Assembly: GCA_963727625.1 (NCBI GenBank)
Contig: CAVSHR010000012.1
Location: 597,603-661,602 of the forward strand
Length of the DNA stretch: 64,000 nucleotides
Source: an uncultured delta proteobacterium
GTDB taxonomy: Bacteria > Desulfobacterota > Binatia > UBA9968
Reading direction: 5' to 3'
Positions 44,996 to 53,715 of this stretch are shown here, piece by piece. The notes under the pieces were generated by a model, which saw nothing but the letters and a program-made list of their open reading frames with translations, was not told the DNA's origin and did not search any database. How positions within the stretch are numbered: the first letter of the stretch is position 1; each line of letters starts with the position of its first letter. The translations under genes and the position numbers were made by a program.

Positions 44996-45946
44996 ATGTT
45001 TTCGAAAACTCGCCTATATATGAGTGGTCTCGGCGTATTGCTCTTATCGACTCTATTTGCGCTGCCGCCCGCCCGCGCCGAGACCATCAAGATTGGCCTG
45101 CCTTCGGTCACGATAACCGCCATGCCGTTCTTCGTCGCGAAAGAGCACGGCTTCTTTCAACAGGAAGGTCTGAACGCAGAGATGGTGGTCATGCCCGCCT
45201 CGCTTAATATCAAAGTGCTCTTGGCCGGCGAAATTCAGTACGCCGCGACCATCGGCTCCGCCGTCGCCGCGGCGATTCGCGGCGTCAATGTGAGGACCGT
45301 CATGTTATTCGTCGACCGGCCGCTGCAGGATCTCGTCGGCGCATCGGGCATTAATAAGATCGCAGATCTAAGGGGCAAAGTGCTAGCGATCTCGTCGCGC
45401 GGCGGATTGCAAGATATCATCATGCGGCGCATCCTCACCCAGGCGAAAATCGATCACAACCAAGTTACGCTCGTCACGATCACGGGACAAAGCGCTCTGA
45501 TCACCGCGCTTAAAACCGGACGTGTCGCCGCCGCCCTGCTCAATCCGCCGTATAATTTTCTGGCCTATCGCGAGGGATTGAACAATCTCGGCTTTTCCGG
45601 AAACTTCGTGCGCCTGCCGAGCACTGGCATCGCGACGCTGGAAGAAACCCTCAAACGCTCACCCGACCAGGTGCGCCGTTTGCTCCGCGCCGTCGCTCGT
45701 GCTCGCGCCTTCGCCAAAGACAACAAGGCAAAAGTTTTTCCCACTCTCAAGCGCGCGCTGCGCATCGACGATGAAGAACTGCTATCGAAAATCTACGACC
45801 AGCATAAAAAAGTTGAAACGCTCGACGGCCGAATCGACGCCAAATTAGCCGCCGACACGATCCGCGACGCGCGTCAAACCCAAGGCGTCACCAAAGAAAT
45901 CCCGATCAATCAGGTCTTCGATTTTTCCTACTTGCCGCCGCGTTAG
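44996..45946 (+). CDS. ABC transporter substrate-binding protein (NMT1/THI5/SsuA-like)
   Basis: Signal peptide; VAKEHGFFQQEGL, IADLRGK. Confidence 0.88.
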   Translation: MFSKTRLYMSGLGVLLLSTLFALPPARAETIKIGLPSVTITAMPFFVAKEHGFFQQEGLNAEMVVMPASLNIKVLLAGEIQYAATIGSAVAAAIRGVNVRTVMLFVDRPLQDLVGASGINKIADLRGKVLAISSRGGLQDIIMRRILTQAKIDHNQVTLVTITGQSALITALKTGRVAAALLNPPYNFLAYREGLNNLGFSGNFVRLPSTGIATLEETLKRSPDQVRRLLRAVARARAFAKDNKAKVFPTLKRALRIDDEELLSKIYDQHKKVETLDGRIDAKLAADTIRDARQTQGVTKEIPINQVFDFSYLPPR

Positions 45947-45950
45947 CCCG

Positions 45951-46091
45951 GTAGGAGGGGTGGAGCCCTTCGGCTTTGCGCAGGACGGGCTTCGCGACAC
46001 CCCATCGTATTTTTTCTTGCGCCTTTGACTTGTGTGCGATTGACGCGGAGCGGAACGATGGGTTTCGGCGCTGCGCCTCTACCCATCCTAC
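45951..46091. repeat. REP doublet (REPIN-like) element, copy 1, left flank of DGR
   Basis: GTAGG...CCTAC inverted ends, 141 bp; homologous over its whole length to 49441-49581; a further REP half begins at ~46128. Confidence 0.75.
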
Positions 46092-46196
46092 ACCGGTCAC
46101 GATGTCTCTTCGCTCCCCGTAGTCCCCGTAGGATCGGTGGAGCGCAGCGATACCCATCAATCCGATGCCAGTCATCTTTCTCCGAAATCGCTTCCG

Positions 46197-47714
46197 TCAC
46201 TCTCTCCCCGGCTTGCCCAATCGACTGGGAGGAATGCGGCCATTCGCCGTTTCCAACCGCCAGGCTGGCAACCGCATCTGGACACCCGTGAGATAGGATT
46301 TGCTCTCCAGGATTGCGGCAACGGACCGTCCGGCCCTGAGCAACTTTCGAAGATAGCGAGCCCTCAGGCGGACCGGGAAGCCGTAGCGGCCACCCCTCGG
46401 GTTCGCTCCGATCGGCGCGAGGTCAAGCAGGTGCGCGGCGTCGTCATCGCGCTCGTCGTAGAATTCGAAGAAGCATCCCACCTGAAATAACACCACGTCG
46501 CCGCGAAAGCGCCAGCGGTAATAGCGATATTGCTGCGCCGTGCGGCGCAACCAGCGGGGCGCTTTGTAGGTGCGCGTGAGTTTACGTTCGTCGAGATCAA
46601 ACTTGAAGTACTGGCCGAGCCAAGTTTCTCGCTCCCAGAGCGAGCGCCAGAGGTCGTAAGTGTTGGCCATCTTCGAATGGCCGAGATAAGAGCAAAGCGT
46701 CGCAAACAGCCTATCGAGTAGTTCTTCATCGAAGCGGTAGCGCCGCCAGTAGCGGCCCTCGCGAACCAGCTCTGCTTTGTATTGCCTTAGTCTGAGTTTG
46801 ATGTTGCTGACCACGCGCCGGCGCCGCAAGAGGTAATCCCGCCGCGCGATGTAACCAACGAAGTCCACCCCGTCGCTCACCGGCCTGAGCCGCGTGCGCT
46901 TGGCGTTGAGTTCGAGCCGGAGATTCTCCCGCAGATACTCGGCGATCCGGCCCTGCCAGTCGACTAGCTTTTCTCGCTCCGCCGCCAGCAGCACAAAGTC
47001 GTCGCAGTAACGCAGATAGTGGCGGCATTTGAGGGTGTGCTTGACGAAATGATCGAAGCCGGTGAGATACACGTTGGCAAAGAACTGGCTGTTGAGATTA
47101 CCGATCGGCAGTCCCTTGTTCTTCGGCGCGCCGAACAGGGTTTTGTGCGGCGGTACCTGGGCGCGCATGCCCGCCGGTCCTTTGTAGACATAGTCCTCGG
47201 TGCAGTCGTGGTAGATCAGCACTTTCGCAAGCCAGAGCGCGTCCGTATCGGCGCATCTCACCTCCACTTGCGCGAAGAGAATATCCCGGTCGATGCTCAT
47301 GAAGTAGTTCTGAATATCGAGCTGGAGATACCAAGCCCGGCGCGTGCCGTTGACGCTGACCTGGCGGATGAACGTTTGCAGTCTCCGCACCGCCGCGTGT
47401 ACGCCTCGACCGTGGCGGCAGGCGTAGGAGTCGTGGATGAACAGCGGCTCCCAGATGCGCTCCAGGTAATCGACCAGTACGTGATGAACGACACGGTCGC
47501 GGAAGTCGGCGGCGAAGATTTCCCGGAGCTTGGGACCCGGCGCGAAAAAGCAGACGGAACGAGAGGGGATATAAGTGTGGTTGACAAGCGCTTCGCGTAA
47601 GGCGAGCAGGTTTTCCTCCTGGCGCGCCTCGAAGCGCAGGGCGTTTAAGGTATTTCGTTTGTTGCGCCGGCAAAGATGATATTGCCGGTAGAGATTCTCA
47701 AACGAAAATAGCAA
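46197..47714 (-). CDS. DGR reverse transcriptase with C-terminal MutS domain I-like extension
   Basis: K.REIFAADFRDRVVHH, SYACR.G.G.H, LDIQNYF.SI, GLPIGNLNSQ (DGR-type GxxxSQ), YLRYCDDF, GVDFVGY; tail VLFQVGCFFEFY...GFP...YLRKLLRAG.SVA. Confidence 0.95.
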   Translation of the reverse strand: MLFSFENLYRQYHLCRRNKRNTLNALRFEARQEENLLALREALVNHTYIPSRSVCFFAPGPKLREIFAADFRDRVVHHVLVDYLERIWEPLFIHDSYACRHGRGVHAAVRRLQTFIRQVSVNGTRRAWYLQLDIQNYFMSIDRDILFAQVEVRCADTDALWLAKVLIYHDCTEDYVYKGPAGMRAQVPPHKTLFGAPKNKGLPIGNLNSQFFANVYLTGFDHFVKHTLKCRHYLRYCDDFVLLAAEREKLVDWQGRIAEYLRENLRLELNAKRTRLRPVSDGVDFVGYIARRDYLLRRRRVVSNIKLRLRQYKAELVREGRYWRRYRFDEELLDRLFATLCSYLGHSKMANTYDLWRSLWERETWLGQYFKFDLDERKLTRTYKAPRWLRRTAQQYRYYRWRFRGDVVLFQVGCFFEFYDERDDDAAHLLDLAPIGANPRGGRYGFPVRLRARYLRKLLRAGRSVAAILESKSYLTGVQMRLPAWRLETANGRIPPSRLGKPGRE

Positions 47715-47727
47715 GGGCGATCATTAT

Positions 47728-47854
47728 CCAGGGCGGACGGCCCAACCGTAGTTGTTGTTGTCCTTGTTGTCGTTGTCCTGGTTGCCATTGTCGAAGTTGA
47801 AGTCCCACGCGTTGTTGGTATTGAACTCCGTACCCGACCAGTAGTCGGACTGAA
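47728..47854 (-). ncRNA. DGR template repeat (TR)
   Basis: 127-bp AAC/GAC-rich repeat between avd and RT; ungapped match to 48612-48738 with 18 of 21 mismatches at TR adenines (manual alignment). Confidence 0.95.
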
Positions 47855-48020
47855 CGGATTGTCTACCCACTTTGTCCGCAAAAGCCCGCGCCTTTGCGCC
47901 ACCGGGCGCAAATCCCGTGTCGGGTATCGCGTCCTGCATCGCCATGCCCGCGGCTCGCACCGCCGCCGGGCGGGGTAGACGCACAATGATTCGAATTGGC
48001 TCGCTCATCCGGACCAGACG

Positions 48021-48410
48021 TTAAGCGCCTGGCGTCGCCGGGTGATTCTGGCCCCCCTGCGCACGACCACCGACACTCCGTATCCACCCCTCGTTCTGTC
48101 TGCTTATTGAAACGATTTCCTGGACCACGAATTGATAGGACTTGAAACTCTTAAACGCTCGCACTTCCTTGGCCAGACGCACCAGAATCATTAGCTCCTC
48201 AAGCTGCTCGCTGAGTTTTATTAGCGACGCCGACTTATCGCGCATGGAGTTGGCCTTGACGATCAAACCGACGACTTCGCGGCTTTTATTGCGCAGCTCA
48301 GTGCCGAGCGTGTACTTGTGATAACGCGAAAATCCCGCCACCACCTTCTCGAAGTGCACCGCCGTGTCCATTGCCTGCTTGTAGATCGGCAAATGCTCGT
48401 AACGGGCCAT
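48021..48410 (-). CDS. avd: Avd-like four-helix-bundle accessory protein
   Basis: Small basic protein, LPIYK....F....KYTLG.ELR, L.RLAK, C-terminal GW; lies directly upstream of TR. Confidence 0.85.
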   Translation of the reverse strand: MARYEHLPIYKQAMDTAVHFEKVVAGFSRYHKYTLGTELRNKSREVVGLIVKANSMRDKSASLIKLSEQLEELMILVRLAKEVRAFKSFKSYQFVVQEIVSISRQNEGWIRSVGGRAQGGQNHPATPGA

Positions 48411-48419
48411 AAAAAAGTT

Positions 48420-48478
48420 GGGGACGACCAGAGCCGTCCCCTTTAAGAAACTTAACTCAGCAGGGGGTTTCCCCCTGC
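48420..48478 (-). other. Two GC-rich hairpins downstream of the DGR target gene (candidate cruciform/terminator)
   Basis: Minus strand GCAGGGGG-AAA-CCCCCTGC (48460-48478) and GGGGACGGC-TCTG-GTCGTCCCC (48420-48441). Confidence 0.6.
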
Positions 48479-48517
48479 ACCCCCGAAGAAAATTATCGAA
48501 TCACCCGAATAACCCAA

Positions 48518-49178
48518 TCACCTACCCCGCCACCGGCGTGCCAACCGCAACCCCAACAGCCCCATTCCCAACAACACCACCGACCCCGGCTCCGGCACGC
48601 TCGCCACATCCCCAGGGCGGACGGCCCAACCGTAGAAGTTGAAGTCCTTGAGGACGGGGCCCTGGAGGCCATTGAAGAAGCCGAAGTACCACGCGAAGTT
48701 GGTATTGAACTCCGTACCCGACCAGTAGAAGGACTGAATGTTGGTAAACGGTCCTTGACTGCCCGTCAGGTTGTCAACCGGACTTCCGCCAAGGTTGTAA
48801 TAGTAATTATACGCCATCTCATTGTCGCGGCAGGCCGTCTCATCGGCACCTCCAGAGCCGTCGCATGGGAAATCAGATCGTCAGCGTGGTAATCGGCCCC
48901 GCCCCCGCTGTCACGCTCGCATACGGCAGCCGCCAGTCGTCAAAACCCTGATAATCCAGATTCGCCGCCCAGGTGTTGGCATCGTCCCAAGTCATTGCCC
49001 CGGTTGCGGAGTTGACGCAGTTGTTCAGCGCCACGCAGAGATTGGCATCCGCCACCCAGGTGATGTTCAGCACGTCGTCGTAGATCAATCCGCTTCCCCG
49101 GTCGATCAGCGTCGCCTGAGCCTTGCCCGCCATCAACAACCCTGCCATCAATCCAAGCGCCAGTATGGTTTTCTTCAT
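48518..49178 (-). pseudogene. DGR target: secreted DUF1566/C-type-lectin-fold protein with PEP-CTERM anchor, split by a single frameshift near 48875-48884
   Basis: Signal peptide; LIDRG.GLIYD..LNITW..DAN, MTW..A..W, DDWRLP; second frame CRDNEM...YYNLG, YWSGTE...AW.F.F..G.Q, WAVRPG, VPEPGS+TM+RRWR. Confidence 0.85.
48612..48738 (-). repeat. DGR variable repeat (VR)
   Basis: Encodes QSFYWSGTEFNTNFAWYFGFFNGLQGPVLKDFNFYGWAVRP versus TR QSDYWSGTEFNTNNAWDFNFDNGNQDNDNKDNNNYGWAVRP. Confidence 0.95.
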
Positions 49179-49228
49179 TGGTTAGCTCTCCACTGCTGCA
49201 CAAATAAAAATATTCATGGCAATTCTGA

Positions 49229-49317
49229 CGCACTATCCATGCCGACAGTGTACATCACTGATTATCTTTACGTATTGCGAATTCGTATAGCCTGCGTATC
49301 TGTAAAGATTCTGAACA
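49229..49317 (-). promoter_or_regulatory. sigma54 promoter plus candidate enhancer site of the PEP-CTERM target gene
   Basis: Minus strand CGGCATGGATAGTGC (GG-N10-GC, 49244-49230); TGT-N11-ACA site TGTAAAGATTCTGAACA at 49301-49317. Confidence 0.55.
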
Positions 49318-49440
49318 ATTTTTTCTTCAGCTCCCGTCGAACCCCCCAAAAGTAAAAAAAACGGAACTTTAGCGGTTTCACCAAAACTGCAAACTCGGCT
49401 TACAGTTTTTCACGATTTACACTTTTACAATCGAATCTTC

Positions 49441-49581
49441 GTAGGATGGGCGGAGCCCTTCGGCTTTGCTCAGGACAGGCAAAGCAATACCCATCGTTTT
49501 TTCTCTTACGCCATTGAGTGATGTGAAATTGATTGGACCGCGGAACGATGGGTTTCGGTGCAACGCCCCAACCCGTGCTAC
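49441..49581. repeat. REP doublet (REPIN-like) element, copy 2, right flank of DGR
   Basis: GTAGG...GCTAC, 141 bp, same orientation as 45951-46091. Confidence 0.75.
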
Positions 49582-49584
49582 GGA

Positions 49585-49619
49585 TTGAGCGTTTTGAACG
49601 GCTTGAACGATTTGAACCG
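49585..49619. repeat. TTGAACnnn nonamer array
   Basis: ttgagcgtt ttgaacggc ttgaacgat ttgaacc. Confidence 0.7.
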
Positions 49620-49631
49620 GCTGCAGAGTTT

Positions 49632-50672
49632 TTATCTAAATTCCGGCAGGACTTTTTCCGCGAACAGACGAATGTTTTTCATCGCCATCTCCTGCGGCAT
49701 GCCGCCGAAGTAGAACGTCCCGGAGATGGTCGTCAGCCCCACTTCCTCGCTCCACTTACGGATCGAATCGGCCACCCGTTTGGGGTCGCCGGCGATGGCG
49801 AATCCCTGCTCGAGCTGCGTTTTGGTATCCCGCTGCGTCAACAACCCCATTTCCTTGCGCGCGGGATCGGCCGCCTTATGCACGTCGTAATAAGACGTGA
49901 TGTACGGCCCGGCTTCTTCTACCGCCTTGTCGAGACTGCTCGATACATAGATGTGGAATTTGCCGAGGATTTCTTTGGCCATCGGATCATGGCCGTTTCT
50001 TACCAATCCGTCGCGATAGGTTTTAATGAAGCCCGGGAGCATATGCGGCTCGCGGTAAAGATAAGGCAGGGTCATCAAGTTGAACCCTTGCTCGCCGGCC
50101 CAGCGAAATGAATCTTCCGAGCGCGCGCAGCCCACCCAGATCGGCGGATGCGGCCGCTGCACCGGCTTGGGATATACCGGCACGCTTTGATAGTTATAAA
50201 ATTTCCCGCTGACGGTTACCGGTTGTTCGGACCACGCCTGCCGAATAACTTCCACGCCCTCGTACATCCGGCCGGTGGATTCGCTCTGGTCGATGCCGAA
50301 TTTTTTGTACTCGTGGCCTTCGCTGCCCTTGCCGACGCCGAATTCCAAGCGGCCGTTGGAGATCACGTCGACCATGGCGTAGGACTCCGCGATGTCGATC
50401 GGGTTGTGCAGCGGCAGCACGTTGATGGCGACGCCGAGGCGGATTTGTTTGGTCGTGCGCGCCAGCGCCGCCATGAACGTGGGCGGATGCGGCAGCGTGC
50501 CGCCGTACATGGCGAAATGATGCTCGGTGACCCAGATATGATCGTAACCGAGACGGTCCATCTCTTCCATCTGGACGAACATCTTCTGATAAAATTCCGT
50601 CACCGGTCCGTCCAGGTCGGGAACGTAAGTCGGTAAATAATGCGCGCCGAACTTGAGCGTCTTGCTTGCCAT
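49632..50672 (-). CDS. LLM class flavin-dependent oxidoreductase
   Basis: GYDHIWVTEHHF, TTKQIRLG, SNGRLEFGVGKG, PKPVQRPHPP. Confidence 0.92.
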   Translation of the reverse strand: MASKTLKFGAHYLPTYVPDLDGPVTEFYQKMFVQMEEMDRLGYDHIWVTEHHFAMYGGTLPHPPTFMAALARTTKQIRLGVAINVLPLHNPIDIAESYAMVDVISNGRLEFGVGKGSEGHEYKKFGIDQSESTGRMYEGVEVIRQAWSEQPVTVSGKFYNYQSVPVYPKPVQRPHPPIWVGCARSEDSFRWAGEQGFNLMTLPYLYREPHMLPGFIKTYRDGLVRNGHDPMAKEILGKFHIYVSSSLDKAVEEAGPYITSYYDVHKAADPARKEMGLLTQRDTKTQLEQGFAIAGDPKRVADSIRKWSEEVGLTTISGTFYFGGMPQEMAMKNIRLFAEKVLPEFR

Positions 50673-50887: not shown

Positions 50888-52228
50888 CTAGCCTCCCGTC
50901 GCGATCGGCGGCGAAAACAGCGTCGGCCCTTCGACTTCGGTCTCGAGCGCTTTGAGCGCGGTGCGAATGATTTCCCGGCGCAAGTTGGCGTCGAGCTCCT
51001 TCGGCAGGCTCGGATCGCCGCAGGGATGCGGAATGCTCACGCCCTTGACGATACGGTTGGCGCGCACCTGTTGTGCCACGGGAAACATCGCGCTCACCAA
51101 CGCCACCGGCAACCCTGCTCGTTCGAGTTCTTTGCTCATCACAGCGCCGCTGCGACTGCAGGTTCCTCACGTGGCGACGAAGAGCACACCCTCGACGTTG
51201 TCTTTTTTCAAGTCTGCGGCGATCTCCTGTCCCATGCGCCGCATCACCGTCGGCGAGCCCTGGTTTCCCGGTATAACGTAGTAAGCTGGATAGAGTTTGC
51301 CCGCGCCGATCGTGCCTTCTTGTTCGAGCGCGCGCAGCGCGTCGAGCGGCACGCCGTAGTGCGGGTTCTGATTCATGTAGGCGACGTTGTAGCCGCCGTG
51401 CACCGCTTCCCATTTACCCGGCTCGAGCGTCTTCAGTTCGGCGATATTGTACTTGCGCCAGTAGGTATTGCGATAGGTCTTGAACTTGTCCGGGTTGCCC
51501 CAGGGCACCACGCCGCTGGTGGTCACCACGGCGATGTTGCGCGCCTTGACCTGGTCCAAGGGCGGCGCCGGCTTGGCATCGTCCCAGATTTCCATGGGCA
51601 GCTCGGTTTCGAACGGCTCGTTATGAATCTTCTTGAGCAGCATTTCGATTGCGCGCTCCGCGCCGCGCCGTTGGCTTTTCACAATCCTTCTGATGCCGCG
51701 GCTGATATAGCCTTCCTTCGCTGCCGCACCGATTTCTGCACCGCTGGCCAAGCGCAGGGCGAATGCGGCGAGTCGCGTCATGGCATCGGTCATGCCCACG
51801 GTGGTTTCCGCGGTCGGCAGGCAATAGATTCCCGCGTTAGCCAAATCGCGGTAGGTGCCGACGCCGGGATTTTCCTCGTGCATGGCAGTCACACAGGGAA
51901 TCGCAATCTGATTGGCCACCGCGTCGCAGATCTCGACGCAGCTCAATCCGTAACGGCCGGAATTGAACGCCGGCCCGGCGACGACGACATCCGGCGCCGC
52001 CGCGCGCACTGCGTCGAGAATCGTTTTGAGCGCTTCGTCCTTGTGCTCGTGAAAATAGTTGTCGCCGACGTAGACCGTGCAAACGATCTTCGCCGCGTCG
52101 CCAAGCTTGGCCTCCAACGCTCGCGCCGCGCCGGCGCCACCGTCGATGACGCCAACCGGCACGCCGGCTTTTTTTTCACCGCCGAGACCGGCGAAAAACT
52201 GATTTAACACGTGAACGATTTTAATCAT
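50888..52228 (-). CDS. grdB: Glycine/sarcosine/betaine reductase selenoprotein B (Sec at UGA 51169-51167)
   Basis: VHVLNQFFAGLGGE, AGPAFNSGRYG, VTTSGVVP.GNPD, HGGY; in-frame VAT-TGA-GTCSRSGA (UxxC) continuing into ORF 50888-51142 (IPHPCGDP). Confidence 0.92.
51138..51156 (-). promoter_or_regulatory. Candidate SECIS hairpin of grdB
   Basis: GTCGCAGC-GGC-GCTGTGAT starting 10 nt after the UGA, G-initiated loop. Confidence 0.55.
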
Positions 52229-52251
52229 CGCAAGCTCTCCTTAAACTCCGG

Positions 52252-52407
52252 AAGAGTTCAAAATGTTCAAGCCGTTCAACCGCTTCGCTCCGCTCAATCC
52301 CCCTCCTTCATCCTCCCCCGCGTCGCGGGGGAGGAAAGTCTCCCTCGTATGACATCGACGGAAGGTGGGGGTTTGATCGATTTGAACGGCTTGAACTAAT
52401 TGAACGA
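52252..52407. repeat. Composite palindromic intergenic element, copy 1
   Basis: GTTCAA arm + TCCTCCCCCGCGTCGCGGGGGAGGA hairpin + TTGAAC arm; homologous to 57931-58061. Confidence 0.75.
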
Positions 52408-53715
52408 CTAACACTCCGCGCATCTGAATCTACCCTCGCCCCAAATATCCGCGCCGCCGATCATCACGTCGCGAGCTTCCAGCGCCAAAGGACCACGCGC
52501 CGGCACCGGAGCGGCTCCGGGATAAGGAAAAATTTTTATCTCATCGTAGGGACCGATGACTTTTTCCATCGGCGGCAGTTGCAACGGCCGGTCGAGCGCG
52601 CCCGTGCTCATCACCGCGTCCGCTTCGGCGAGATAAAACAGCACCGGGCTGTCCTTGCCTTCTTTGCCGCCGTTTTCATAGGTGACCAGCGTGGTTTTGA
52701 CGCCGGCGCGCTCGCAGGCGCGCACGGTAAACATGACGTCGACAAAGGCGTTGCCGCCACCGATCCAGGTCACCAGCGCGCCGTCGGCACCGAGGGATTT
52801 CGCCATGCGCGCCGCGTTGAGCGCGCCGACTTCCTTGCCGTGATTGTTCTCGAAGCGAATGCGCTGCAAGATCACGCCGCCGAAATTCAACGTCTTGCCG
52901 TGGGCGGCGTAGAGCTCCAGCACCAGCGGATGATTTTGCCAATCCCAAGTGGTGGGATAATAGCCGCGCCCGGAGCGCGTCGTATCGACGGTCACCGCGC
53001 CGTCGAAGATCTCGTTGGGATGAACGAAGGTCGCCAGGGAATTGCGCAGGGAGAGGCCGTAATAACCGACGCCCGAGTGGACGTGCTGGGGGTCGGTGAT
53101 GCAGCCTTGGATCAGCATCACGTTGGGCAGTTCTGGATCGCTTTCGCTCAAGTCGTAGCTGTGCAGTCGCGCCGGAGCCAAGCCTTCGGTGATCCGTGCC
53201 AACTGTTGCGCGACTTTGAGCTCGGCCATCTGAATCGCGCCATGGGCATCGAGCTCGCCCAGGCCGGGAACGATTTTAAAGCTCACGATCAGGTGCGAGT
53301 AAGCGCTGAACCGCGAAACTTCCGCCCCCGGACCGGACATGTCGAGGATCGCACTCCTCTGCACCGTGGTCCCGGCGCGGATCGTGCCCTCGTACTCAGC
53401 GGCGGCGATCACCGTCATCCCCGAAAGACGGTGCGTCCGTCCCGCGCCGACATTTTCGACGGCACCCAAGACGCCGGGAAAAACCTGGCCGCCGCCCGAA
53501 ACTTTATAGCGCGGCTCGACGATGTCGCGAATCCCCGTGATGCGCGTCGTGTCCCCCGGTGCAGCAATGCCCAGAGTCACCTCGGTGATGCGCCGATCTT
53601 CCAAAACGAGCGCAATCAACGCCGCCTCGTCGACCTCGAGGACTTCGTTCTCGTAGGCAAAGCGCTGCCCCAAGCGAATCTGGCCGACGGGAAATTCCGC
53701 AATCTCAAGCTTCAC
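52408..53715 (-). CDS. Glycine/sarcosine/betaine reductase component B proprotein-like subunit (GrdE/GrdI family)
   Basis: MKLEI..F.V, A.PG...RI....D.VEPR, G.GRTH.L.G, ILDMSGPGA, HPNEI.DGA, QNHP, ADGA, DAV.STG. Confidence 0.88.
   Translation of the reverse strand: MKLEIAEFPVGQIRLGQRFAYENEVLEVDEAALIALVLEDRRITEVTLGIAAPGDTTRITGIRDIVEPRYKVSGGGQVFPGVLGAVENVGAGRTHRLSGMTVIAAAEYEGTIRAGTTVQRSAILDMSGPGAEVSRFSAYSHLIVSFKIVPGLGELDAHGAIQMAELKVAQQLARITEGLAPARLHSYDLSESDPELPNVMLIQGCITDPQHVHSGVGYYGLSLRNSLATFVHPNEIFDGAVTVDTTRSGRGYYPTTWDWQNHPLVLELYAAHGKTLNFGGVILQRIRFENNHGKEVGALNAARMAKSLGADGALVTWIGGGNAFVDVMFTVRACERAGVKTTLVTYENGGKEGKDSPVLFYLAEADAVMSTGALDRPLQLPPMEKVIGPYDEIKIFPYPGAAPVPARGPLALEARDVMIGGADIWGEGRFRCAEC

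Follow-up and report, generated by a model that had tools for sequence, protein, structure and literature searches.

Genomic Organization of the Element

The locus lies in an uncultured delta proteobacterium (Binatia; UBA9968), on contig CAVSHR010000012.1 of assembly GCA_963727625.1, and the window, which is the whole 64,000-nt stretch that was analysed, covers positions 597,603 to 661,602 of the forward strand. It carries a diversity-generating retroelement (DGR) with the gene order target-avd-TR-RT on the minus strand, as a preliminary description of this DNA had proposed (Table 1). The catalytic motif of the RT is kept across 35 aligned proteins. Among solved structures its best match was 8UB7 (E 4e-35; the top group II intron protein reached E 3e-11), an entry that we take to be the BPP-1 bRT; the length of the 8UB7 RT (328 aa) fits the brt CDS. 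Group II and retron NCBIfam models scored far below their cut-offs on this protein, which by its sequence is a DGR-type RT with an intact catalytic motif. Its C-terminal MutS_I domain is annotated on most of the best 120 RT homologs. This domain was overlooked in the preliminary description, as were three G>T mismatches, the split target ORF and the non-C-terminal position of the VR, all described below.

Table 1. Features of the DGR and its flanks (window positions)
Feature	Position	Strand	Remarks
Flanking direct repeat, left copy	45951..46091	.	flanks element
RT, 505 aa	46197..47714	-	YCDD at 236-239; TTG start 14 nt behind TR; PF00078 E 3.6e-18
MutS_I domain, RT C-terminus	46311..46538	-	PF01624 23.4 bits, cut-off 20.6
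RT-coding arm of avd:RT duplex	47550..47561	-
TR 3' end / IMH*	47720..47729	-	template strand of predicted template:primer duplex; predicted first templating base G 47728
TR	47728..47854	-	37 adenines; aligned to VR
Structured leader RNA between avd and TR	47856..48056	-	covarying, 200-nt; predicted permuted equivalent of BPP-1 spacer
Stem with internal loop P6	47904..47934	-	weakest helix, 83% paired; position of bRT-binding stem, putative role
Stem-loop P5	47946..47971	-	then invariant A at 47945
Stop-like strand P4	47973..47980	-	pairs with 47861-47868 just 5' of TR; 8 pairs, 97.3% paired, 6 with two-sided change
Predicted primer strand	47981..47990	-	pairs with 47720-47729; 8 pairs, 97.8% paired, 5 with two-sided change
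Predicted priming nucleotide	47983	-
Leader hairpin P2	47999..48052	-	6 pairs, 5 with two-sided change; position of Avd-binding stem-loop, putative role
avd, 129 aa	48021..48410	-	PF22296 bAvd 45.6 bits, cut-off 40
avd-coding arm of long-range avd:RT RNA duplex	48092..48103	-	12 pairs
Terminator-like hairpin	48420..48441	-	directly before avd; such sites no commoner here than in shuffles
GC-rich hairpin, 8 bp, 3-nt loop	48460..48478	-	133 nt behind VR; fold z -4.3 for 48410-48520
Target gene, 3' piece	48518..48868	-	second Lcl_C half with VR, then PEP-CTERM tail; other frame than 5' piece
PEP-CTERM sorting motif behind VR	48533..48601	-	PF07589 27.7 bits (cut-off 20.7); TIGR02595 above cut-off
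VR	48612..48738	-	21 mismatches to TR, 18 at TR adenines
Target gene, 5' piece, 101 aa	48873..49178	-	signal-peptide-like start (by sequence reading only), first Lcl_C half; TGA end after frameshift near 48876
Flanking direct repeat, right copy	49441..49581	.	~140-nt, palindromic; 78% identical to left copy

The two direct repeats are the only long copies of this repeat in the genome. The sequences flanking the element are contiguous in congeners, and the empty sites in two of these genomes (G006 and G021) hold one partial repeat copy each; the element is inserted chromosomally at a site that is empty in congeners. Pfam families were assigned to 13 of the 14 flanking proteins, all of metabolic, transport or cell-envelope types (one has none), and the scan found no phage gene among the 14, so the earlier statement that the element is not in a prophage holds for the scanned genes. 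The best RT relative in IMG/VR shares 37% identity, and the RT was not found in 30 genomes of the same genus and six others of the same family, several of them incomplete. Within the host genome, searches found no second TR, avd or Lcl_C gene, no further leader and no additional VR matching the TR. The insertion at an empty site, the PEP-CTERM tail and the upstream RNA are likewise absent from the preliminary description.

Template and Variable Repeats

The TR and VR align without gaps over 127 nt, and the counts of the preliminary description were reproduced: 18 of the 37 TR adenines are substituted (11 A>T, 4 A>C, 3 A>G), the VR contains no stop codon, and the 3' GWAVRP segment is identical in both repeats. 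Mismatches are strongly enriched at adenines (18/37, against 3/90 at other bases; Fisher p 4e-9), which together with the DGR-type RT bears out the reading of these differences as the adenine mutagenesis footprint of a chromosomal DGR. The excess of A>T over the spectrum of the lineage is marginal (p 0.04). About 10^22 protein variants are possible from this TR. A 94-aa ORF over the TR (47724-48008) was read not as a gene but as a by-product of the open frame of the TR: what Pfam detects in this ORF is the TR, and its 5' portion coincides with the structured leader.

Each of the three non-adenine mismatches is a G>T change in the first position of a GAC codon (TR 47846, 47804 and 47792), and one of them creates a Tyr. 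They lie in the 5' half and are best read as TR drift in which AAC became GAC and the change never reached the VR; the TR of relatives shows A>G drift of the same kind at 47783. Together with the split target and exosortase genes (see below), such drift would fit an element that is wholly a fossil, in which the VR records old mutagenesis and no retrohoming has occurred since. We regard this as unlikely: RT, avd and TR are intact, as is every leader helix, and in the 3' half the TR and VR agree at the GAC codons. Non-adenine differences were moreover reported in 23% of DGRs in the accessible part of Wu et al. (PMC5758913), and several differing contigs across the VR in run X1 give a weak hint of standing variation. 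Runs X1-X4 represent contigs of relatives rather than reads of the host strain, and no contig in them bridges the whole element.

Target Protein and Exosortase

The two pieces of the target gene are colinear with full-length homologs, 40 of which (205-384 aa) were collected, most with PF07603 plus PF07589; the 5' piece itself matches PF07603 at E 4.7e-6, under the curated cut-off. A C-type lectin fold fits, to judge from homolog P0121, whose model (pLDDT 88) has as its best match the C-terminal domain of Lcl (8Q4E, E 3e-4); the gene itself is frameshifted in this assembly. Behind the VR come 31 further codons carrying the PEP-CTERM motif, and the tail consists of the PEP motif, a hydrophobic/transmembrane stretch and a basic C-terminus, the arrangement that defines PEP-CTERM proteins. 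By sequence, the target belongs to the Lcl_C (C-type lectin fold) proteins and carries its PEP-CTERM tail after the VR. PEP-type targets fall into one 18-row RT clade in a quick-search, midpoint-rooted tree built without group II or retron rows. The known PEP-CTERM/exosortase system (PF07589, TIGR02595, PF09721) shares with this locus the motif, hydrophobic stretch, basic C-terminus and an exosortase in the same genomes, but here the sorted protein is a DGR target and the host exosortase is split in the assembly. Intact exosortases were present in all five tested genomes bearing PEP-type target genes; within the genus, only 2 of 31 genomes yielded any exosortase.

The single PF09721 locus of the host is split over three pieces. 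The description of the DGR as complete is overstated, since the target gene is frameshifted near 48876 in this assembly; likewise, the element is a chromosomal DGR, but that it diversifies a cellular protein at present is not established, with both the target and the sole exosortase split. Because both genes are split, the output of the DGR in this genome is probably dead or dying. It is possible, though we hold it to be the lesser prospect, that these breaks are assembly errors and the element is intact and active. A close relative in X1 has one base fewer at 48876 (one contig, depth 8.6), both exosortase shifts adjoin short base runs, the RT, avd and leader are intact, and the assembly has other frameshifts (3 flagged among 158 orthologs over about 141 kb, two of them clear, and 9 among 342 paralog loci). 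The ortholog figures, however, amount to about one shift per 50-70 kb, so that one shift in the 0.66-kb target and two in the 0.8-kb exosortase would be very unlikely if errors were evenly spread. The target break also lies outside any homopolymer, decayed DGR cassettes are common in the clade, and the X1 contig, with 36 other differences in 578 nt, comes from another strain.

According to Guo et al. (PMC3240598; portion available), a DGR hairpin is expected 4-34 bp behind the VR. None occurs there; the nearest perfect hairpin of at least 6 bp is the GC-rich one of Table 1, and similar hairpins lie 133-198 nt behind the VR in all seven PEP-type VRs with enough sequence. It is a candidate target-recognition hairpin that may have been displaced by the PEP-CTERM tail. 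Only 13 of 48 C-terminal VRs of the lineage have a hairpin within 60 nt, and a VR-proximal hairpin is therefore not universal.

A Predicted RNA Structure Upstream of the Template Repeat

Among 23 loci, 93.6% of 1115 cells in the leader alignment are paired and 33 of 49 pairs show two-sided change, a level reached in 0 of 500 shuffles; slid controls gave 38-45%. The alignment on which the pairs were counted also served to predict the structure, and relatedness among its sequences inflates the shuffle test. All 23 rows have G 47982 and C 47981, and 22 of them have the opposite G. In the window and in 16 of 22 other VRs, TR/VR identity ends 0-1 nt from this opposite G; the other 6 of the 22 VRs end 5-7 nt beyond the predicted start. 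At the predicted priming position, 20 of 23 rows have U. A further duplex joins the avd and RT coding sequences, with 92% of cells paired and two-sided change at four pairs (23 loci); over 39 loci, from which rows L057 and L063 were left out for a misregistered motif, pairing is 84%, against 33-50% in slid controls. This duplex was rejected as the cPRT Stop, as it lies about 235 nt from the TR, whereas P4 ends 6 nt before it. Behind the TR there is no spacer: the RT starts 14 nt downstream, and no conserved or comparable helix was predicted there. The leader has no Rfam match, and the Rfam RT motifs gave none in the window and 14 related loci at E up to 1. Two of these motifs, RT-10 and RT-16, are likewise structured RNAs beside RT genes and proposed primers, RT-10 being the BPP-1 spacer region (Weinberg et al., PMC5737381, as far as accessible).

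In BPP-1, the DGR RNA comprises the avd 3' end, the TR and a 140-nt spacer (Sp), according to the available portion of Handa et al. (bioRxiv 10.1101/2023.10.23.563531), on which the following comparison draws. Both elements share the order target-avd-TR-RT and A-specific TR/VR differences, and in both the TR 3' end and a segment 5' of the TR are paired in succession by one RNA strand. A G-C follows the (here predicted) priming position and a G.G pair forms at the first template base, with leader G 47982/C 47981 and the opposite G corresponding to Sp G57/C58 and TR G117; a stem-loop plus A and a stem with internal loop follow, so that the elements of the leader come in Sp order. The adjacent template:primer and Stop duplexes from one strand, with G.G, that mark a BPP-1-type RNA are thus found here by topology and covariation, from upstream of the TR. 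In contrast to BPP-1, the scaffold lies 5' rather than 3' of the TR, the TR directly adjoins the RT start, U takes the place of A as the predicted priming base (20 of 23 rows), the avd:RT coding duplex is extra, and the element is chromosomal with a MutS_I tail on its RT. There is no primary-sequence likeness to Sp, so that topology and a single G-C motif carry the mapping. By this analogy the leader looks like a circularly permuted DGR RNA, in which priming would take place.

Distribution of the Leader

The leader model R1 matches 58 of 80 metagenome loci (15 of them training loci), and 40 of the 42 matches with a known TR abut it; TR/VR pairs are carried by 53 of these 80 related loci. Each of the three new genome-wide matches has avd on one side and, on the other, a TR for which a matching VR exists. 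On 80 phage loci R1 found nothing. The TR ends within 40 nt of the RT start at 27 of 50 lineage loci, and at least 100 nt before it at all 56 phage loci. R1 does not match BPP-1 or the Legionella plasmid DGR, the latter of which shows the same upstream topology when folded as a single sequence. A crude tandem-duplex detector, run with equal windows, ranked the true spacer helix of BPP-1 best downstream but scored a chance upstream match higher, and is noisy and not reliable per locus. Our literature search, with Handa et al. in the preprint version and Weinberg et al. as far as accessible, found no upstream or permuted DGR RNA. In its available part, the preprint describes a scan of only 40 nt upstream and 100 nt downstream of the TR (bioRxiv 10.1101/2023.10.23.563531), which would miss the leader.

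The leader might instead be a structure conserved for RNA stability or control of RT translation, with priming elsewhere, in the RT-coding RNA or the target DNA. Helix P3, which pairs with the GGA preceding the RT start and covers what is probably the ribosome-binding site of the RT, may act in translational control; the conserved avd:RT duplex draws RT-coding RNA into the fold; and genome G266 keeps the leader in three TR-less copies. These copies, however, score 52-59 bits against 130, no comparable helix is predicted behind the TR, and a strand pairing with the TR 3' end directly followed by one pairing with the TR 5' flank, with an invariant G opposite the last templated G, reproduces the BPP-1 priming geometry as far as the preprint text available describes it. 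We therefore consider a leader without a part in priming improbable.

Proposed Mechanism and Implications

Starting from the genes, the TR/VR pair, the assembly frameshift, the empty site in congeners and the covarying helices, which are directly established, we think it likely that this is a chromosomally inserted DGR with mainly adenine TR/VR differences, a frameshifted Lcl_C/PEP-CTERM target and a conserved RNA scaffold upstream of the TR that primes cDNA synthesis. In the folded avd-leader-TR-RT transcript, the TR 3' end would be held by leader 47990-47981 and the 8 nt in front of the TR by the neighbouring 47980-47973. From the nucleotide at about 47983, probably via its 2'-OH by analogy with BPP-1, RT and Avd would initiate cDNA opposite G 47728; adenines would be miscopied, synthesis would end at the P4 helix, and the VR would be replaced by the cDNA. 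A secreted lectin-like protein would result, which an exosortase would take over for surface display.

Among the closest known systems are also the category 'd'/CLec2 DGRs (DUF1566 = Lcl_C), exemplified by Legionella, which share the Lcl_C target, VR class, avd-TR-RT core and surface display, as well as MutS_I on some RTs, occasional non-A differences and internal VRs (PMC5758913, accessible part). Legionella LdtA is a lipoprotein with a C-terminal VR, whereas here a PEP-CTERM anchor follows the VR; neither PEP-CTERM nor RNA structure is mentioned in the available portion of that paper. PEP-CTERM targets would be an additional surface-display route for hypervariable lectins. No published DGR with such a target was found in the literature search, and no PEP-CTERM annotation in the examined portions of the supplements to Roux et al. 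(PMC8144416).

On how DGR priming generalises beyond BPP-1, the part of the preprint available reports BPP-1-like elements in 207 of 278 DGRs (bioRxiv 10.1101/2023.10.23.563531), and a permuted RNA could explain part of the others. The permuted RNA also yields predictions at the nucleotide level. In an alternative model, DGR priming uses a nick with a free 3'-OH. Here such a nick would sever the leader from the template, whereas 2'-OH priming would give branched RNA-DNA, so that a primer 5' of the template separates the two models. For DGR engineering, the locus suggests a compact cassette in which the TR sits beside the RT and the VR may be internal to the gene, although the frameshift of this copy would need checking before it could serve well as a reagent.

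More broadly, we lean towards the view that this is a second DGR RNA architecture, in which the whole BPP-1 spacer is permuted 5' of the template and priming occurs at a predictable nucleotide (47983 here, opposite G 47728). It would be the norm in a large chromosomal lineage with Lcl_C targets, probably including the Legionella type, and this lineage would tolerate VRs far from the gene end, so that C-terminally anchored PEP-CTERM surface proteins may have become hypervariable.

TR/VR Pair and Reverse Transcriptase

The ORF layout bears out the minus-strand order target-avd-TR-RT of the preliminary description, and the template repeat (TR, 47728-47854) aligns to the variable repeat (VR, 48612-48738) over 127 nt without gaps, as had been claimed. 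Among the 21 mismatches, 18 fall on TR adenines and the remaining three are G>T; the earlier manual count (18 of 37 adenines; 11 A>T, 4 A>C, 3 A>G) was reproduced, and the computed enrichment is strong (18/37 adenines vs. 3/90 other bases, p 4e-9). Each G>T mismatch is the first base of a GAC codon in the TR 5' half, and in the 3' half the G is kept in all three GAC codons. Relatives (contigs in runs X1-X4) have A>G at TR position 47783, so these G>T mismatches are most simply read as TR having drifted from AAC to GAC. Non-adenine TR/VR differences occur in 23% of the DGRs in the accessible text of Wu et al. (PMC5758913). A search of the genome found no further VR, TR, avd, or Lcl_C gene, including the additional VRs suggested for checking.

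The RT (505 aa) combines RVT_1 with a C-terminal MutS_I domain above cut-off, and avd passes PF22296. The RT's top solved-structure match is 8UB7 (E 4e-35) vs. 3e-11 for the best group II match, and the group II and retron NCBIfam models score far under cut-off, in agreement with the DGR-type assignment made earlier. The MutS_I tail, present in most homologs among the 120 matches listed, is already known from three RTs in the accessible part of Wu et al. (PMC5758913). The nearest RT (P0001, run X1) is close up to 46724 and divergent over 46197-46724, where run X2 covers the window's version. Sequence comparison suggests that the thumb/MutS_I part may have been swapped. Two distant RT copies of the source genome (G000; C3:14438-15151 and C4:1060111-1060824; 29% identity) are probably of group II intron type.

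Target Gene and Exosortase

The target ORF (49178-48873) ends in TGA, and VR sits in a different frame. Because homologs (40 matches, 205-384 aa) run uninterrupted across the break position, the target is best read as a single gene with a frameshift near 48876; one X1 contig, from another strain, has one base fewer there. The description of the DGR as complete is overstated with regard to the target, which is frameshifted in this assembly; RT and avd are intact. Downstream of VR follow 31 codons with the PEP-CTERM motif. The predicted structure of homolog P0121 (pLDDT 87.8) best matched the Lcl C-terminal domain (E 3e-4), with C-type lectins next, weakly.

The genome's sole exosortase is split into three pieces. 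It lies in a polysaccharide gene cluster (C11:268000-293000) together with three intact-looking PEP-CTERM genes, and a fourth is on C2. Background frameshifts numbered three flagged (two clear) in 158 orthologs over 141 kb, and 9/342 among paralog loci. Real decay is the somewhat favored explanation of both breaks. Alternatively, both might be assembly errors and the element active in the organism, which we regard as a less probable yet serious reading: a clustered error could produce both, but breaks in both partners are unlikely under evenly spread error. That the frameshifted element is a fossil seems rather unlikely. Assembly error and fossil status bear on the window's copy, not on the RNA architecture.

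Predicted Leader RNA Structure

According to the accessible text of bioRxiv 10.1101/2023.10.23.563531, the DGR of Bordetella phage BPP-1 has a 140-nt spacer (Sp) 3' of TR, whose elements are, one after another, a stem-loop bound by Avd, a primer strand that base-pairs with the 3' end of TR, G57 and C58, the cPRT Stop strand that base-pairs 5' of TR, a second stem-loop containing adenines, a ring of single-stranded RNA, and the stem to which bRT binds; Sp G57 lies opposite TR G117, positions that we confirmed on the BPP-1 record. In the window, RT starts 14 nt 3' of TR, and RNAalifold predicts a matching series of elements, in the same order, in the leader between avd and TR, 5' of TR rather than 3'. 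As modeled, the topology is that of the BPP-1 RNA cut between TR and Sp with the other ends rejoined.

Predicted elements of the leader RNA
Feature	Position	Strand	Evidence
Hairpin P2	48052-47999	-	RNAalifold, 23 loci
P3	47990-47981 with 47729-47720	-	RNAalifold, 23 loci
P4	47980-47973 with 47868-47861	-	RNAalifold, 23 loci
P5 and invariant A	leader, after P4	-	RNAalifold, 23 loci
P6	leader, after P5	-	RNAalifold, 23 loci

Across the 23 loci, picked chiefly by spacing from 41 having both motifs, 93.6% of 1115 helix cells are paired and 33/49 pairs show two-sided change, figures that lean high since the fold derives from the same alignment and the rows are related; none of 500 shuffles scored as high, and slid registers were 38-45% paired. 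G 47982 and C 47981 are the same in all 23 rows, and a G faces G 47982 in 22/23 rows, as TR G117 faces G57 in BPP-1. For the window and 16/22 other VRs, this facing G is 0-1 nt away from where TR/VR identity ends, and for the other six it is 5-7 nt ahead of that boundary, which was no input to the fold prediction. That the leader instead serves RNA stability or translation control appears quite improbable. An additional duplex joins avd codons 48103-48092 and RT codons 47561-47550 (84% paired vs. 33-50% slid, 39 loci), with compensatory changes.

Distribution of the Leader

A covariance model (R1) built on 18 leaders matches, at E below 0.001, 58/80 metagenome loci collected with the RT alignment, 15 of them training rows, and 40 of the 42 matches with known TR adjoin it. 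Three new sites were found in 151 phylum genomes, all between avd and TR with a matching VR. R1 matched none of 80 phage loci, nor BPP-1, Magia, L002-L005, or the Legionella plasmid DGR, and no Rfam family matches the leader. Folded as a single sequence, the Legionella plasmid DGR (L237:3100-3420) likewise has its primer and Stop strands upstream, in the same topology, though R1 gives no match. A crude detector placed the tandem strand upstream in 42/50 lineage loci and downstream in 44/56 phage loci, a population trend only, because it misranked BPP-1 itself. In another DGR (L243, G095:C4), TR is interrupted by inserted sequence.

PEP-CTERM Targets and VR Position

A TR/VR pair is present in 53/80 metagenome loci, five with a PEP-type tail (L021, L024, L027, L029, L030); none was found in the 67/80 phage loci that have a pair; the single phage-locus VR with a tail of comparable length lacks the PEP motif. 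Genome G266 (L209, L210, L239; C3) carries one full PEP-CTERM DGR and three cassette copies. These copies have lost TR and the 5' part of the RT and retain the target, avd, and a leader in weakened form. Nearly all differences between their VRs and the single TR are at adenines; two of these VRs lie at least 0.8 Mb away, and one has a 3-nt insertion. A Desulfobacter latus record (L006:4686-7248) has a PEP-type target and avd, but only the final ~42 nt of TR remain and the RT stops at 418 aa; the leader model found no match there.

In a quick, midpoint-rooted tree of 97 RT rows (3/100 omitted as too short or interrupted), all eight PEP-type rows group within a single clade of 18 rows (SH-aLRT 98), whose other ten rows have no detected VR. 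An intact exosortase was present in 5/5 tested genomes with PEP-type target genes. Members of the target family are also present where there is no DGR: the family matched in 14/401 phylum genomes, with avd or RT within 1.5-kb flanks in G000 (the source genome), G266, and G398 only.

A GC-rich hairpin lies 133-198 nt 3' of VR in 7/7 PEP-type VRs with enough sequence; the distance is 4-34 bp in the accessible text of Guo et al. (PMC3240598). In the parts available, Roux et al. (PMC8144416) attribute C-terminal VRs to the need for intergenic cis elements, and Wu et al. (PMC5758913) record internal VRs as exceptions. Nine related DGRs (L036, L038, L040, L055, L061, L079, L090, L091, L096) have VRs deep within large proteins, with 129-977 residues following; one protein has two VRs.

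Genomic Site

That the element is not in a prophage was upheld for the flanking genes scanned: 13/14 proteins match Pfam families that are not of phage type, and one matches no family. No copy of the RT turned up in 36 same-family genomes, several of them incomplete, and the flanking genes are adjacent (~40-340 nt apart) in nine congeners (G006, G011, G012, G015, G017, G018, G020, G021, G028). Two 140-nt repeats, 78% identical and found only here in the genome, bracket the element, and one partial copy is present at the empty site in both G006 and G021; the element probably entered at this repeat. The intergenic site may be an insertion hotspot, because in the congeners G002, G003, G004, G014, G027, and G029 the site (45946-49632 in the window) is occupied by different inserts, roughly 1.2 to 10 kb long. 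At 51167-53715 lie genes for glycine/sarcosine/betaine reductase component B, where the terminal stop of a 353-aa ORF may be a selenocysteine codon, a feature of this family.

Proposed Mechanism

The element is a DGR of Wu category d that departs from the known form in two respects, the PEP-CTERM target and the upstream RNA. Our literature search, with subscription journals mostly outside its scope, found no paper combining DGRs with PEP-CTERM, and none describing a DGR RNA that is permuted or lies upstream, including the accessible text of PMC10907252, bioRxiv 2024.11.15.621889, and bioRxiv 2026.09.22.753630; in the text available, the analysis of Handa et al. reached only 40 nt upstream of TR (bioRxiv 10.1101/2023.10.23.563531). 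Anatomy, mutational footprint, and covarying helices are direct observations, and the following steps are proposed alongside them. The leader would position RT and Avd; cDNA would start opposite G 47728, from about 47983; TR would be copied with errors at A; synthesis would stop at P4; and the cDNA would replace VR. The target protein would then be exported and anchored by exosortase.
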